A DNA stretch of 64,000 bases from a virus (lineage: Duplodnaviria > Caudoviricetes): positions 155,690 to 219,689 of the IMG/VR virus record IMGVR_UViG_3300005076_000002. One strand, given 5' to 3'. Of this stretch, positions 3,675-56,549 are shown in pieces; position 1 is the stretch's first letter; each line of letters opens with the position of its first letter. The notes below the pieces were generated by a model. The model did no database searches. It was given only the letters and a program-made list of their open reading frames with translations, and was not told the DNA's origin. The position numbers and the translations under genes were made by a program.

Positions 3675-3706
3675 GGGAGAGGCTACGGCCTCTCCTCTTT
3701 TATGCC
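3675..3706 (+). terminator. Intrinsic terminator with TTTTATGCC tail
   Basis: GGAGAGGC-tacg-GCCTCTCC then TCTTTTATGCC. Confidence 0.8.
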
Positions 3707-7208: not shown

Positions 7209-7240
7209 CCCTAGCACGGCAATGCCGTGCTAGGGTTTTA
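7209..7240 (+). terminator. Intrinsic terminator
   Basis: CCCTAGCACGGC-aat-GCCGTGCTAGGG-TTTT. Confidence 0.85.
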
Positions 7241-7256
7241 TATGTTTGGAGACATC

Positions 7257-11932: not shown

Positions 11933-11969
11933 GCTAGGGGCTAATGCCCCTAGTTCTTTTTTTTTTGCC
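11933..11969 (+). terminator. CTAGGGG-family terminator
   Basis: GCTAGGGGC-taat-GCCCCTAGT then TC-T-run-GCC. Confidence 0.85.
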
Positions 11970-11982
11970 CTATTCCAAAATA

Positions 11983-12006
11983 ATTCAACTATATATTATC
12001 ATTGTG
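11983..12006 (+). promoter_or_regulatory. Putative phage early promoter (24-nt motif)
   Basis: ATTCAACTATATATTATCATTGTG. Confidence 0.65.
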
Positions 12007-12174
12007 CAATACGCAATGTATTTGATCGGCATGACCTTTCGGATACTTACTTGGTATAACCTGGTTGGAGAATGAAAATGATTGTACTACACATCGACGT
12101 GTGTGCCTCGTTTAAACATTTTCTAACCAGGGGAGGGTATTTGTATTTAAAGGGGGTGATTCCCCCCTATTTTT
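12007..12174 (+). ncRNA. Candidate phage small structured RNA
   Basis: Lies between the early-promoter motif and a terminator (12151-12174). 15-bp stem 12060-12074/12117-12131 with two G-U pairs, plus nested inner stems. No credible ORF. Confidence 0.5.
12151..12174 (+). terminator. Intrinsic terminator
   Basis: AGGGGG-tgattc-CCCCCT-ATTTTT. Confidence 0.65.
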
Positions 12175-12200
12175 GTCTTTTCTTTTTTTAGGAGGCCATC

Positions 12201-12917
12201 GTGGCAGGTTACCCAAAAGCTTATATGTTAAGCAAGAAGAAGGTTAAGTTAAATGAAGATATCCCCACACTGACCCTAGATGATTTCATAGAGCTAAGTG
12301 ATGATGCAATAAACCATTGCTACGATGTCTATGTTCTGGACAAATTCAAGAAGAAGGAAATAAAACGCCTCGAAGAGTTTGCCTCTGAGAACTTCGTCAC
12401 TGTAAACTACAGACAGCCGTCGAAGAAAGAAATAAAAGCTGCCAAGAAATCAAAAAAGGAAACAGATGTTTCCATCCAGCCGTCGACCGTCGATTCGGAG
12501 AACACGCAACTACTGCCAAACCGCGATTATGTCGTGAAGGTTATCGGCACGCCACCTGTACCACGAGCAAAAAATAAAAGGGATCGAATAATCGTTACAC
12601 CGTTCGGACCTATGAGGGAATCTGAATATGCAGCGATGCCATTTACCCCCATCTTGCAGGCAGTGATGTCGAGCGCGTTTTATATTGCTAGCGGCAGTAA
12701 ACCCAAGGACGAACCCATCGTTCAGCAGGCTTACTATAACCGCGTGGCGCTGGCAGATGCATTGGCAGCCAAACTCCCATGGCAGGCGTCTGCCAGTGAG
12801 CGTAATGCTTTTAAGTACCACATTTGTCGCGAGATGTCAGAGGATGAGGTAGTTAACCTAGCAGTAGATACCATGGCTCAACACGAGCTGGTAAAAGGAT
12901 TCACCGTTAAAAAATAA
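12201..12917 (+). CDS. Hypothetical Lys-rich protein
   Basis: AGGAGG RBS; GTG start. Confidence 0.75.
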   Translation: MAGYPKAYMLSKKKVKLNEDIPTLTLDDFIELSDDAINHCYDVYVLDKFKKKEIKRLEEFASENFVTVNYRQPSKKEIKAAKKSKKETDVSIQPSTVDSENTQLLPNRDYVVKVIGTPPVPRAKNKRDRIIVTPFGPMRESEYAAMPFTPILQAVMSSAFYIASGSKPKDEPIVQQAYYNRVALADALAAKLPWQASASERNAFKYHICREMSEDEVVNLAVDTMAQHELVKGFTVKK

Positions 12918-12965
12918 CAAAGTGGGTTTACTATAAGTAAGCCCATCATAAGTCTCGGAGTAAAC

Positions 12966-13592
12966 ATGTCAGGACATACCAAGAAGTCGAATAACATTGC
13001 TTTGAACCCACTTGCTCGTAAATTCTGGGCTGAGCAAATATATCGAACGTATGGCGTAGGGAATGTGGATGCCATGGGTATGATTATCAAATTCCTGTGC
13101 CCAGAGCTCAACGGAGAGTCCGTCTACACCATTAAGGGATACGGTGTAGACGCTGTTGCGGAAAACGCTTATGGGTTCTATGAAGCTAGAATCCTAAAGC
13201 TCGTGCAGCGTATAGGGGCACATCGTGACTGTCGCACTATCCCAACTATTGAGGTTGTGCGCGGATTGCTCAGGGAAGCATGTATCGCATTTAACAACAC
13301 GATTTCTCGCGTACGGATCAAGGAAGGTAAACAGGTGTATTATCGCCAGACCGAACACAGCTACGAGATGATCTGCGGTGATGACAAATTCGTCATGTCT
13401 CAGATCATGGGTGTCCCGGCAACAGAGTTCGAAGTCAAGTTCAAGCGGGCTTACGAATTCCATGTTCCTGCGAAAGACCATCTGGTTTTAAGTGGCTACC
13501 GCAAAGTAGTATCGCGGCCCAATCGCAAGTTCTTATTCACTGAACAAGGATGGCAGATGAAAACACGCTGCTACAATACGAAATGTTTGTGA
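12966..13592 (+). CDS. Hypothetical protein
   Basis: GGAG RBS. Confidence 0.75.
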   Translation: MSGHTKKSNNIALNPLARKFWAEQIYRTYGVGNVDAMGMIIKFLCPELNGESVYTIKGYGVDAVAENAYGFYEARILKLVQRIGAHRDCRTIPTIEVVRGLLREACIAFNNTISRVRIKEGKQVYYRQTEHSYEMICGDDKFVMSQIMGVPATEFEVKFKRAYEFHVPAKDHLVLSGYRKVVSRPNRKFLFTEQGWQMKTRCYNTKCL

Positions 13593-13598
13593 GGATTT

Positions 13599-14033
13599 AT
13601 GTTATTTCTAATGCCGGAGTCGTGGGTTGTTGACGGCGTGTCTCTAAGTCCAAATGTTCGTGTTATTTTGTCTACCCTACTGACTAATGCTATCGGGGAA
13701 GATATCACACCAGAGTACGAGTGGCGGCGATTAATGAAACCTACTACGTTTGCTTACAATGGTGCGGTTATCGATATTAACCTTAGGAATATTGGCCATA
13801 ACCAACTCGTCGTCATTGCACACGTCTCAGAGTCAGACGGCGTGATCAAGGACGTTATGAGGCAACTCGAATTTGATAAAATCAGAGAGGCCAAAATTAA
13901 AATATTCAATCGGACGGATAAAACGGTACCGGATGAGGACTGGTACTGTGGTATCAAATACACAGGTTACTATACTGCAATCGGGGCCCTCGAAAAACTC
14001 GCGGTAAGTGAAAAAGACTTTATCAAACACTAG
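13599..14033 (+). CDS. Hypothetical protein
   Basis: GAGGA RBS. Confidence 0.75.
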   Translation: MLFLMPESWVVDGVSLSPNVRVILSTLLTNAIGEDITPEYEWRRLMKPTTFAYNGAVIDINLRNIGHNQLVVIAHVSESDGVIKDVMRQLEFDKIREAKIKIFNRTDKTVPDEDWYCGIKYTGYYTAIGALEKLAVSEKDFIKH

Positions 14034-14042
14034 GACTTTAAC

Positions 14043-15152
14043 ATGTATCTTATTACCAAGCACGACAACTTCCACCGTCACATCCAACAACCCTTTATGC
14101 CCAAGAGCGTATCTCGTATCGGTACGACCAAGGTTGAGAACGTCATCTACACACTGTACTTTGCCGACGTTGAAGACGTTACCGGTGAAATCGGTGAGAA
14201 CGTGTTCTTCTTTGGCCTTTCCGAAGATTTCGGCGCCATTCTTAACCGGCTTAAATCTCGCGGTGGCGCTAAAGCCGAGGGACGTATTCTGTACCACGGC
14301 TTCATGAATAATGAACAGACTGTTACTGCTGAGCTCAACGACAGTATAGAAAATCTGTCGGTGGCTTTTGGTCTGGGGTCAGCCCTGAGTAAATCTCAAG
14401 AAGACCATCGTCGCATGATGGCTCTCGCAGAACAGTACAATATGGAGTCTGAAAACGAAGAAGCACTGAAGAGTGCACTGCTTGGCATGTACAAAGAGTT
14501 CATGGCTGTAATGTCTCCACGTATCGTACTCGAGGGCATGAAACAACGCCAGCATGTCGTAGTCAGTCAAGGCGGTGTTATGACCGATGCACAGATCGCC
14601 CAAGCCGTTCTCGACCATGGTATGATCAAACCTTTCTTTATGGACACCGTCCGTGAAGTAAATGGCCAGCCGGTGATCTCCTTTGGTCTGGGTTCGATGG
14701 GCTATGATACTCGCCTGCGCCCTATCTTCAAGCTGTTCAAGAAAGACCCGATCAATGGCGCGATCGACCCGAAAGCTTTCAACGAGAAACACGTAAGGAT
14801 CGTTGAAGGTGATGTCATCGAATTGCCCCCGAAGACCTATGCGTTGAGTGAGACTGTTGAACGATTCGACATGCCCAATAACGTAATGGCTTTCTGTCTG
14901 GCAAAGTCGACCTATGCCCGCTGCTGTATCGGTGTAAACACTACACCTATTTGGCCAGGCTTCAAAGGCCATGTCGTTATCGAGTTCTATAACCACGGTG
15001 ACGTCCCGGTTAAGATCTATGCAAATGAAGGGTTTGCGCAGTTCGTCTTCATGCGTGCATCGCAAGACGTTAATCGCAATTATGCCGACCGTGGCGGCGT
15101 CTACCACGGACAAGAAACAGGTGTTCAATCTGCAAAGGTAGGTAAGCAATGA
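14043..15152 (+). CDS. dcd: dCTP deaminase with ~175-aa N-terminal extension
   Basis: MIKPF, ISFGLGSMGYD.RL, IDPKAF, KSTYARC, IEFYN (catalytic Glu), KIYANEG.AQ and Y..RGG.Y.GQ motifs. Confidence 0.9.
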   Translation: MYLITKHDNFHRHIQQPFMPKSVSRIGTTKVENVIYTLYFADVEDVTGEIGENVFFFGLSEDFGAILNRLKSRGGAKAEGRILYHGFMNNEQTVTAELNDSIENLSVAFGLGSALSKSQEDHRRMMALAEQYNMESENEEALKSALLGMYKEFMAVMSPRIVLEGMKQRQHVVVSQGGVMTDAQIAQAVLDHGMIKPFFMDTVREVNGQPVISFGLGSMGYDTRLRPIFKLFKKDPINGAIDPKAFNEKHVRIVEGDVIELPPKTYALSETVERFDMPNNVMAFCLAKSTYARCCIGVNTTPIWPGFKGHVVIEFYNHGDVPVKIYANEGFAQFVFMRASQDVNRNYADRGGVYHGQETGVQSAKVGKQ

Positions 15153-15670
15153 ACCACATCATTAAGGTATCCTCCGTGATACCGGACTACAGCGTCGCAT
15201 TAGACACGTTGTTGGTGTCTGCTGCTGGTGCCGCTTCGGTAGCAGAGGCGCAGATGAGTATCTCCGCGCTGATACGTACCGCCGCACATGAAACGCTGGT
15301 ACTGGGAGACCCCCATGACCCATCGTTTGAACTGACTGTCCTGATTCCTGGTATCAAAACCTTGATGGACGAGTCACGTCTGCATCAGCAGATGATGGGG
15401 ATGGCAGTTAACCTCATTGGCCCTCCGATGGCTATCCATGCACAGACGGAATCCGAAAGCGTAAAGGAGACGTTCTTCGAAATTGTCAACACGCTGGGTT
15501 GGCTCGGGGAATACCTCGGCCCGCAGGTACAGATCGATGGACTTAAGTTCATTGACGTGCCGGTCGGTGAAAACAAACGTCATATGACGGCGATCATGTT
15601 CAATGGTCGTCTGCATCCGACATCATTCATTAACTTCGTTGGCAATCGTAACTACTACTACTCGGTGTAA
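15149..15670 (+). CDS. Hypothetical protein
   Basis: Start overlaps the dcd stop (ATGA). Confidence 0.75.
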   Translation: MNHIIKVSSVIPDYSVALDTLLVSAAGAASVAEAQMSISALIRTAAHETLVLGDPHDPSFELTVLIPGIKTLMDESRLHQQMMGMAVNLIGPPMAIHAQTESESVKETFFEIVNTLGWLGEYLGPQVQIDGLKFIDVPVGENKRHMTAIMFNGRLHPTSFINFVGNRNYYYSV

Positions 15671-15671
15671 T

Positions 15672-15794
15672 ATGAAGACCTTCTTTAAAGCAATGTCTGT
15701 TGTCGCTGCTGCTGTTGTCGGTCTGGCCGCTCCTTACGGGGCGGTCGCTATTTACCTCATGGGAATCATCTGGTATAACCAGATTTTTCATTGA
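15672..15794 (+). CDS. Small hydrophobic/membrane protein (40 aa)
   Basis: MKTFFKAMSVVAAAVVGLAAPYGAVAIYLMGIIWYNQIFH; fills the gap between genes. Confidence 0.55.
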   Translation: MKTFFKAMSVVAAAVVGLAAPYGAVAIYLMGIIWYNQIFH

Positions 15795-15812
15795 TATGTA
15801 AAGGGAGCAATC

Positions 15813-16301
15813 ATGCATGAACTAATCTTTCAATTGAGGCGCTACTATATGAAGCCGATGAGTTTCGTTAGTAAGCGCTGGTGGAACCTCAAACTCGATA
15901 TCCTTTGCAAGTATTATGGTGGCGGTAAGAATATCCCTCCTGCGGTACTAGCCAAATGGTGCCCTATAGTACATGACAATATTGAACGGGCGTGTATCGG
16001 AGCCTGTCTACCGGTTGTACGGCTGGGACAGTTCTTGGGTATTCCGCTTGAACAAGACATCGCCATGGCGTATTTCAACGGCTTCGTGTACAACAATGCA
16101 AAAACCTACTACGAATTGAAAGTGGGCCGTCGTATTGCGTTATCGGTTCGCCCTGCTAAACAGTATTTCCGTTGCCTTTATATGCAGGGGCATTATCAGC
16201 GTAAAATCAAATTCGTTCTCTCTCAACCGGAAAAGCTGGAAGAGTTCCGTAAGTTGATAGAAGAACCCAACGAGCACTTAACGTTGTCAATCAGCGTATA
16301 A
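15813..16301 (+). CDS. Hypothetical protein
   Basis: GGGAG RBS. Confidence 0.75.
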   Translation: MHELIFQLRRYYMKPMSFVSKRWWNLKLDILCKYYGGGKNIPPAVLAKWCPIVHDNIERACIGACLPVVRLGQFLGIPLEQDIAMAYFNGFVYNNAKTYYELKVGRRIALSVRPAKQYFRCLYMQGHYQRKIKFVLSQPEKLEEFRKLIEEPNEHLTLSISV

Positions 16302-16304
16302 CAA

Positions 16305-16332
16305 AGAGCGGGGAAACCCGCTCTATTTTTTT
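16305..16332 (+). terminator. Intrinsic terminator
   Basis: AGAGCGGG-gaaa-CCCGCTCT-ATTTTTTT. Confidence 0.85.
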
Positions 16333-22566: not shown

Positions 22567-22590
22567 TTACAGGTATATCTTATCTATGTG
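22567..22590 (+). promoter_or_regulatory. Putative phage early promoter (24-nt motif)
   Basis: TTACAGGTATATCTTATCTATGTG. Confidence 0.7.
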
Positions 22591-22620
22591 GTAATAACCA
22601 AGTAATCTTAAGGAGTAAAC

Positions 22621-28137: not shown

Positions 28138-28163
28138 TAGGGGCTACATGCCCCTATTTTTTT
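28138..28163 (+). terminator. Intrinsic terminator
   Basis: TAGGGGC-tacat-GCCCCTA-T7. Confidence 0.8.
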
Positions 28164-28209
28164 ATATGGCTGTCTATCCTTTAGATCTATCCATGCACTA
28201 GGAGCAAAC

Positions 28210-29438: not shown

Positions 29439-29466
29439 CTAGGGGCCTTAGAGCCCCTAGCTTTTT
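29439..29466 (+). terminator. CTAGGGG-family terminator
   Basis: CTAGGGGC-cttaga-GCCCCTAG-CTTTTT. Confidence 0.8.
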
Positions 29467-29481
29467 ATGCAAGGAGTTAAT

Positions 29482-29785: not shown

Positions 29786-29809
29786 TTTCAGGCATATATC
29801 ATCTAGGTG
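29786..29809 (+). promoter_or_regulatory. Putative phage early promoter (24-nt motif)
   Basis: TTTCAGGCATATATCATCTAGGTG, preceded by an A-tract. Confidence 0.7.
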
Positions 29810-29841
29810 GAGTTCTTCATAAAACATTCATGGAGTTGAAT

Positions 29842-30006
29842 ATGACACCTAACATTGTAATGCTGATGATTATTGTAGTTCTGGTACTGGCTAACCTGTG
29901 GCAGCGTCATGATCGTAAAGCGCTGAAATCTGAAGTGGTGAAAACCAAATCAGAGCTGACGCATCGTATCAAGATCATTCGTAAGCTGCGCCTTGGGCAC
30001 AGCTAA
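29842..30006 (+). CDS. Small TM plus basic-tail protein (54 aa, absent from ORF track); monocistronic unit
   Basis: GGAG RBS; MTPNIVMLMIIVVLVLANLW...; has its own promoter motif and terminator. Confidence 0.7.
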   Translation: MTPNIVMLMIIVVLVLANLWQRHDRKALKSEVVKTKSELTHRIKIIRKLRLGHS

Positions 30007-30011
30007 AAGAT

Positions 30012-30045
30012 CTAGGGGTAAATCCCCTAGTTCTTTTTTTTTGCC
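30012..30045 (+). terminator. CTAGGGG-family terminator
   Basis: CTAGGGG-taaat-CCCCTAG-TTC-T9-GCC. Confidence 0.85.
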
Positions 30046-30058
30046 CCAACTAAAATCT

Positions 30059-30082
30059 TTTCAGACATATGTTATAAAAGTG
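30059..30082 (+). promoter_or_regulatory. Putative phage early promoter (24-nt motif)
   Basis: TTTCAGACATATGTTATAAAAGTG. Confidence 0.75.
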
Positions 30083-31593: not shown

Positions 31594-31625
31594 GGGAGGC
31601 TATAAGCCTCCCCTTTTTTATTTTT
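31594..31625 (+). terminator. Intrinsic terminator (GGCTATAAGCC core)
   Basis: GGGAGGCT-ata-AGCCTCCC then a T-run. Confidence 0.8.
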
Positions 31626-39471: not shown

Positions 39472-39495
39472 TTTTAGATGTATTTTATCTAGGTG
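39472..39495 (+). promoter_or_regulatory. Putative phage early promoter (24-nt motif)
   Basis: TTTTAGATGTATTTTATCTAGGTG. Confidence 0.65.
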
Positions 39496-39525
39496 CAACG
39501 GTTAACTAATCTTTAAGGCGGTCAT

Positions 39526-45929: not shown

Positions 45930-45960
45930 GGGGGCTATAAGCCCCCTTTCTTTTTATTTT
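45930..45960 (+). terminator. Intrinsic terminator (GGCTATAAGCC core)
   Basis: GGGGGCT-ata-AGCCCCC-TTTCTTTTT. Confidence 0.8.
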
Positions 45961-47742: not shown

Positions 47743-47793
47743 TCCGTAGGGCGGCTATAAGCCGTCCTATCATTTCTATTTAAGGATAATACC

Positions 47794-56511: not shown

Positions 56512-56549
56512 GCTAGGGGGTAACCCCTAGCCTTTAATTTTTTATGCCG
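56512..56549 (+). terminator. CTAGGGG-family terminator with TTTTATGCC tail
   Basis: GCTAGGGG-gtaa-CCCCTAGC...TTTTTTATGCC. Confidence 0.8.

Follow-up and report, generated by a model that had tools for sequence, protein, structure and literature searches.

What does a phage transcribe from an early promoter that is followed closely by a terminator, with nothing between the two that resembles a credible gene? The initial annotation of the stretch of DNA analysed here (64 kb, called the window) described such a unit around position 12,000 as an orphan that may encode a small RNA, possibly a decoy; a leader or attenuator of the gene at 12201 was offered as the fallback. We consider it probable that the unit is a structured 5' leader RNA of an early operon, subject to premature termination, in a nucleus-forming jumbo phage. 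The coordinates of its parts are collected in Table 1.

Table 1. Features of the promoter, leader and terminator unit in the window
Feature	Position	Strand	Details
Intrinsic terminator of preceding operon	11933..11967	+	9-bp stem, T10 run; found by scan
Early-type phage promoter	11962..12009	+	Weight matrix (PWM) score 45 bits; 27 copies in genome
Promoter parts	11975-11978; 11992-11999; 12004-12006	+	A-tract; TATATTAT; GTG
Helix H1	12018..12046	+	12 bp, 5-nt loop; two central pairs mismatched in window lineage
H1-P3 junction (the annotated "bubble")	12047..12059	+	Holds TGGTATAAC
Near-invariant 5' arm of P3	12058..12092	+	TTGGAG, 7 nt, ATG at 12078
Long hairpin P3	12060..12131	+	15-bp base, then 6-bp, 4-bp and 4-bp stems; apical loop 12093-12098
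39-codon frame (37 from ATG 12078)	12072..12191	+	Crosses P3, hairpin and T-run
3' strand of basal closing helix	12132..12138	+	In window lineage pairs with 12034-12040
Terminator-like hairpin and T-rich run	12151..12189	+	6-bp stem (5 G-C) and 6-nt loop at 12151-12168
AGGAGG Shine-Dalgarno and GTG start of 238-aa gene 12201	12190..12203	+	Same arrangement in every homologous contig

The phage and its early-type promoter

The window is the 3' end of a 219,689-bp IMG/VR virus record that is estimated to be 92% complete, and the phage is known from metagenomes only. It encodes phiKZ-type RNA polymerase beta-like genes as well as a chimallin homologue (PF25677, 44.8 bits, above the cut-off; PHROG "nuclear shell protein", 6e-38), and on these grounds we take it to be a nucleus-forming jumbo phage. 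A beta-like subunit of its RNA polymerase is 47% identical to that of the Vibrio phages pVa-21 and pVp-JHP1101, which are by this measure the nearest cultured relatives of an uncultured clade. The phage appears to have no close cultured relative: BLASTN and TBLASTN searches with the locus and its neighbour genes (238 and 208 aa) returned no GenBank phage match. Protein-guided scans and DNA pattern scans for the locus found nothing in IMG/VR, a pattern scan found nothing in JGI metagenomes, and homologues of the downstream 238-aa protein were found only in Logan assemblies. Among the neighbour genes the sole Pfam or PHROGs matches are one DprA-like and one dCTP-deaminase-like gene.

The early-promoter motif annotated at 11983-12006 is real, its coordinates all check, and it forms the core of a longer motif with the order A-tract, TTTCAGRCA, TATATTAT, N4, GTG. 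With a weight matrix built on this motif, the 219,689-bp genome yields 27 copies, 10 of which lie in the window; every copy is on the + strand, and the - strand has none. The copy examined here is typical, with a score in the middle of the range. Chimallin of phiKZ is produced very early in infection, and one copy of the motif stands 83 nt 5' of the chimallin gene. By analogy with phiKZ, this position supports assignment of the promoter to the early class read by the virion polymerase, and we infer the early timing of the unit from this assignment.

Transcription would start near 12004-12008. We place the start at the conserved GTG because several other copies of the promoter have a 5' stem-loop there. 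As annotated, the nine other promoters in the window lead straight to an open reading frame, each preceded by a Shine-Dalgarno (SD) sequence and 22-69 nt away. [quoted passage not shown]

Several further observations concern early promoters elsewhere in this genome. Many are followed after 20-35 nt by TAATCT(C/T), which often forms the 3' side of a stem-loop, for example GAGATTAG-ATA-CTAATCTC (window 22576-22620 and 39481-39525; genome 7572, 53508, 68193, 84017, 130860 and 150139). This stem-loop lies right at the predicted transcript start, and early mRNAs may have it in common as a 5' end motif. A second early promoter with an ORF-free structured leader, 113 nt long, is found outside the window at genome 11881-12005; it contains a 14-bp hairpin with a z-score of about -2.5 by mononucleotide shuffling. 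At window 29795-30070, a mini unit consists of an early promoter, a 54-codon ORF and a terminator at 30012, with the next early promoter at 30068.

Fold and conservation of the probable leader RNA

The + strand between 12000 and 12180 folds with -62.6 kcal/mol (z -5.3), and none of 200 shuffled sequences folded as well; the - strand of the same region reaches -40.7 kcal/mol (z -2.65). This difference upholds the argument, made initially from the G-U pairs in the stems, that the structure belongs to a + strand RNA. The 15-bp stem formed by 12060-12074 and 12117-12131 and the stems nested within it are all contained in the minimum-free-energy fold. The unpaired bubble outside this stem fared less well: its sequence, ACTTGGTATAA, is present as described, but the fold predicts a junction or mini-hairpin instead of an open bubble, and the sequence is not conserved: L007, L009 and L015, three of the other four lineages, have TGGTAAAAC instead. 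Sequence and predicted pairing vary by lineage throughout the junction. No Rfam family matched the element on either strand at E<=10. The genome contains no second copy, as BLAST returned only the promoter motif and the covariance model R1 only this copy.

The whole intergenic unit was recovered from five lineages: the window type (window, L001-L004), L007, L009 with L011, L015 with L016, and L030. Synteny is preserved in all five. The terminator of the preceding operon is present in all of them with a changed loop, and the promoter stretch AATTCAACTATATATTATCATTGTG is the same except for a single C to A change in L030. Between the window and L009 the flanking genes share 55-79% DNA identity, with four-fold degenerate sites at 20-52%, near saturation. 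The RNA stretch of the same pair is about 70% identical by column (about 80% between window and L007 in a pairwise alignment), and the promoter and the stretch from the terminator hairpin to the ribosome-binding site (RBS) are 85-90% identical. From H1 to just before this hairpin, L030 has 129 nt and each of the other four lineages 128 nt, despite internal indels. L030 folds alike (z -5.2), and so does L007 (z -3.7).

The substitutions tend to preserve both H1 and P3. H1 is a perfect 12-bp helix in L007, L009, L015 and L030; its pairs 8 and 11 are altered on both sides in L015, which is compensatory, and pair 10 appears as U-G, C-G or U-A depending on the lineage. In close relatives, A-to-G and C-to-U changes in the 3' arm of P3 lead to G-U pairs. 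P3 of L007 and L009 lacks one G on the 5' arm together with the opposite C, a paired deletion. The inner 6-bp stem is shifted in register, and a bulge alternates between C and U. The apical loop is different in each lineage (AUCGAC, AUGAC, AGG, CUGA or AUGA) on a stem that is kept. The base of P3 behaves differently. In the window lineage, the mismatched H1 frees its 3' arm, for which 12132-12138 is the predicted alternative partner; in the other lineages the base is closed by CUGGU, just 5' of P3, and (A,G)CCGG. Since the partner strands differ between lineages, the basal helix seems to have been rebuilt while H1 and P3 persisted.

In a model-based alignment of the five lineages 90.8% of cells are paired, a share that drops to 32-48% if partner columns are offset by 1-3 positions. 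Changes on both sides affect three pairs, and 13 further pair types occur. The covariation score was reached by 2 of 500 shuffles, a figure that comes from five lineages and from an alignment fitted to a structure derived from one sequence. We regard the covariation as modest: it is supportive, not conclusive, and with five lineages the shuffle controls are not decisive. Conservation of the stem in relatives, named in the initial annotation as a check, is thus borne out in that H1 and P3 are kept in all five lineages. This pattern shows purifying selection with the pairing kept.

Outside these lineages, R1 found nothing in pVa-21, pVp-JHP1101, phiKZ or 201phi2-1. A 19.6-bit match in phage EL was rejected as a relative; it is a bidirectional terminator between convergent genes. 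The ends of public contigs sit exactly at both terminator hairpins that flank the element (starts of L002, L007, L015 and L016; starts of L005, L006, L010 and L012-L014). Palindromic sequence that strains have in common has probably caused this clustering during assembly.

The two arms of P3 are not equally conserved. Only 4 of 33 columns vary in the 5' arm, three of them due to one displaced indel, compared with 15 of 35 in the 3' arm (Fisher P=0.007). Judged from these columns, the invariance shows a constraint beyond base pairing, for example a binding site for a protein or the ribosome, or a processing signal, and a specific function, if there is any, would be located here. The layout of the arm, with TTGGAG, seven A-rich bases and ATG, has the form of the phage's own ribosome-binding sites. 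Within the phage genome, 8-mers of the arm are not enriched, and the initiation region of no phage gene resembles it. In the genome collection a 22-nt piece of the arm had a single hit, in a Eubacteriales MAG, which we rejected as homologue or target: it is a chance match to the RBS and start of an unrelated gene.

Putative terminator and downstream operon

A scan found the annotated terminator at 12151-12174 as a hairpin at 12151-12168 with a T-run. The 30 nt from 12147 to 12176, comprising the hairpin and the proximal T-run, are identical in all recovered copies. With -10.4 kcal/mol the hairpin is weaker than the genome median of -14.65 kcal/mol. It lies about 165-172 nt from the predicted start and, in every copy, 22 nt 5' of the AGGAGG that precedes gene 12201. 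This gene is the first of seven (12201-16301) before the next terminator at 16305. No early-type or TATG-type (TTTTATG) promoter motif was found between the hairpin and gene 12201, and a guessed middle-promoter motif, TTATTTAC, defined no clear class. A separate middle promoter for gene 12201 may nevertheless lie inside the leader. Because the hairpin adjoins the RBS of a block for which no other promoter motif was found, we prefer to read the unit as the leader of gene 12201. The description as an orphan is difficult to maintain on the same grounds, and the fallback of the initial annotation fits better.

Is termination at this hairpin conditional? We found no antiterminator fold: with the 5' arm of P3 blocked, the terminator stays in the minimum-free-energy fold of four lineages. 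A riboswitch or conditional attenuator was rejected because mutually exclusive terminator and antiterminator folds were not found. A long-range pairing between 12024-12032 and the SD region, proposed by RNAalifold, was also discarded, as the change in L015 is compensated inside H1. In the absence of an alternative fold, conditional termination is not supported, and a constitutive partial terminator is the simplest explanation. Twenty of the 74 + strand sites with a hairpin and T-run have an SD-preceded ORF at most 50 nt downstream and no early promoter in the gap, so that read-through must be common in this phage.

According to the leader reading, a virion-type RNA polymerase would start near 12005, transcribe H1 and then the long P3, and then meet a moderately strong intrinsic terminator just ahead of the RBS of gene 12201. 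Termination at this point would give a stable RNA of ~165-172 nt, and transcripts that read through would serve as mRNA for genes 12201-16301. With partial termination the element would throttle the operon behind a promoter of typical motif match, and would release a short folded RNA.

The AlphaFold model of the 238-aa protein encoded by the first gene (12201-12917) has a mean pLDDT of 57. The conserved parts of the protein are an N-terminal portion of ~70 aa and a helical C-terminal domain of ~65 aa that also occurs alone in other proteins; the lysine-rich linker between them evolves fast and varies in length. A distant homologue of this domain, in L031, has no leader and stands beside a thymidylate synthase gene split by a GIY-YIG endonuclease. 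Two other types of site were noted next to hairpins. TTTTATG or TTATATG occurs right after terminator stems at window 3696-3706, 7236-7246, 28159-28170, 29461-29470 and 56532-56545; these sites precede genes without an early motif, resemble the TATG type of phiKZ, and are candidate late promoters. Hairpins with varied stems and a common C-TATAA-G loop lie 10-25 nt before an RBS at window 31594-31612, 45930-45946 and 47746-47770, and at genome 53547 and 54030.

Competing explanations and known leader RNAs

Could the short RNA itself be the product? A stand-alone early sRNA of ~170 nt, released by efficient termination at 12170-12176, might act in trans on a host or phage partner through the 5' arm, either after unfolding or processing or bound as a hairpin, with gene 12201 expressed otherwise. 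The much stronger conservation of the 5' arm relative to the 3' arm, the invariant hairpin and T-run, and 5' and 3' structures that are expected to stabilise the RNA all agree with this idea, as does the report that phiKZ short RNAs of similar layout can make up >90% of a promoter's transcripts (PMC10914365). We still find it unlikely. A seed region is not usually base-paired along its whole length, yet the invariant arm is so in all lineages; a search of the phage genome for complementary targets gave none beyond chance expectation; the terminator hairpin is less stable than the genome median; and no other promoter motif was found that could serve the downstream operon. The element was also found only beside gene 12201, in a search that ran through this gene and is biased accordingly. 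A more specific version treats P3 as a guide and passenger pair, in which an invariant 35-nt 5' arm, a near-perfect mimic of an initiation region, is locked by a drifting 3' arm; the short early RNA could then be a regulated decoy or docking site for the ribosome or for a phage protein directed at translation initiation. We hold this to be a long shot. The initial annotation had suggested a decoy of another kind, namely a 6S-type open-promoter mimic that sequesters host sigma70 RNA polymerase, or else a CsrA/RsmA sponge. The element does resemble 6S RNA (RF00013) in its length and its rod-like, largely double-stranded shape, TGGTATAAC occurs at 12052-12060, and three GGA motifs are present. 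Both proposals are nevertheless highly improbable: no 6S or CsrB/RsmZ family matched at E<=10, the large central bubble is absent from the fold of every lineage, and the -10-like word TGGTATAAC, which ends in C and lacks the final T of a -10 hexamer, is not conserved but gives way to TGGTAAAAC in L007, L009 and L015. Three GGA motifs are what chance would provide (2.4 expected by shuffling, P=0.44), and all of them lie in stems, not in hairpin loops.

Translation of the leader is the next question, as the 5' arm is a textbook initiation region with GGAG, a 7-nt A-rich spacer and AUG. All five lineages keep the small frame of 37-39 codons that starts there open, and its TAG overlaps the SD of gene 12201 in three; a gene caller predicted the frame as a gene in L030 and, in L016, joined it to the main gene. 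In such a case translation, and not the peptide, could control the hairpin or the start of gene 12201. L007 and L009 have a frameshift within the peptide, between residues 8 and 20, the frame of L030 crosses the hairpin in another phase, L015 and L016 lack the stop, and four of five changes in close relatives are non-synonymous. We judge from these comparisons that the frame encodes no conserved peptide, in line with the initial view that promoter and terminator enclose no credible gene. Its SD and AUG are moreover locked within the 15-bp base helix of P3, while the main SD of gene 12201 lies in an unstructured U-rich stretch. Nucleus-forming phages are described as uncoupling transcription from translation (PMC12908238), which makes ribosome-dependent attenuation of transcription unlikely. 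Control by a translated upstream frame is in our estimate improbable, and we give slightly less credit to P3 as a processing or stability element. RNase III processing sites do occur in the early mRNAs of T7 and lambda, and P3, located in an operon leader, offers about 29 bp of imperfect duplex broken by small internal loops, so that cleavage by a host RNase III-type enzyme might mature or stabilise the downstream mRNA; against this, a terminator intervenes between P3 and the gene, and recognition by RNase III does not need sequence invariance in one arm. The long inverted repeats of the region could finally be taken for an element that works as DNA, for instance an origin or a palindrome bound by a protein. 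This is barely credible, because the window copy contains six G-U pairs, each of which would turn into an A-C mismatch on the opposite strand, the one-arm A-to-G and C-to-U substitutions of relatives keep pairing in + strand RNA only, and the element is located between a promoter and a terminator.

One contig, L016 (positions 141-1079), shows what the loss of the small-frame stop can lead to: TAG has become CAG, and the frame runs in phase into a 245-aa gene, called as 312 aa. Its sister contig L015 has one extra T, which puts the small frame out of phase with the main gene.

Leaders of the preferred type have been mapped in related phages, and phiKZ-type phages have many of the short RNAs that premature termination yields. 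In phiKZ, 42 terminators lie in 5'UTRs, 81% of which give either a short RNA of <250 nt or a long read-through form; two of the short RNAs were confirmed by northern blot, and phiKZ alone has 17 candidates (PMC10914365). Examples are a 141-nt RNA before PHIKZ302, a 71-nt RNA before PHIKZ221 and the 196-nt 5'UTR_gp40 (Putzeys et al. 2024, PMC10914365). Early termination within a 5'UTR likewise accounts for 8 of 11 sRNAs in 201phi2-1 (PMC11512511). The papers that mapped these transcripts report no function for such short RNAs (PMC10914365, PMC11512511). Our unit comes from a phiKZ-like phage and shares with the phiKZ 5'UTR RNAs the order of phage promoter, short structured RNA of <250 nt, intrinsic terminator and gene, as well as conservation among relatives. 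Of the features that define the phiKZ class, a promoter directly upstream, a terminator within <250 nt in the 5'UTR and conservation before the same gene (in five lineages) are all present. The unit differs in that it has no sequence or structure homology to the phiKZ RNAs (R1 finds none) and is known from sequence, whereas the transcripts of phiKZ were measured. The published screen for this class also excludes leaders with an SD-preceded ORF of at least 10 aa, and ours contains the 37-39-codon frame with GGAG 7 nt upstream. A similar comparison applies to sRNA005 of 201phi2-1 and the phiKZ sRNA upstream of gp182 (PMC11512511), which are also chimallivirus 5'UTR RNAs conserved with their downstream gene. 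These precede a tail-protein gene and are common to several genera; ours precedes an unannotated 238-aa gene, is found in one uncultured clade only, and has no R1 match in 201phi2-1.

A functional parallel is conceivable with a more distant phage, in which two conserved stem-loops likewise come straight after an early promoter, before a terminator that has to be passed for the operon to be expressed. The put RNA of HK022 is cis-acting, consists of two stem-loops and makes RNA polymerase resistant to terminators. Our element has no sequence relationship to put, and the polymerase here is a phage multisubunit enzyme.

Taken together, the unit most likely belongs to a known class, the phiKZ-like 5'UTR leaders that give short RNAs by premature termination, and the layout of promoter, leader and terminator is thereby extended to the uncultured clade nearest to pVa-21 and pVp-JHP1101. 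Its uncommon feature appears to be the invariant hairpin arm that resembles an initiation region. The comparison of five lineages separates constrained parts (the promoter, one arm of P3, the terminator and its spacing to the RBS) from free parts (the other arm of P3, the apical loop and the basal helix), and so provides precise targets for mutagenesis. If the decoy or docking reading were true, a nucleus-forming phage would set this RNA free in the cytoplasm within the first minutes of infection.
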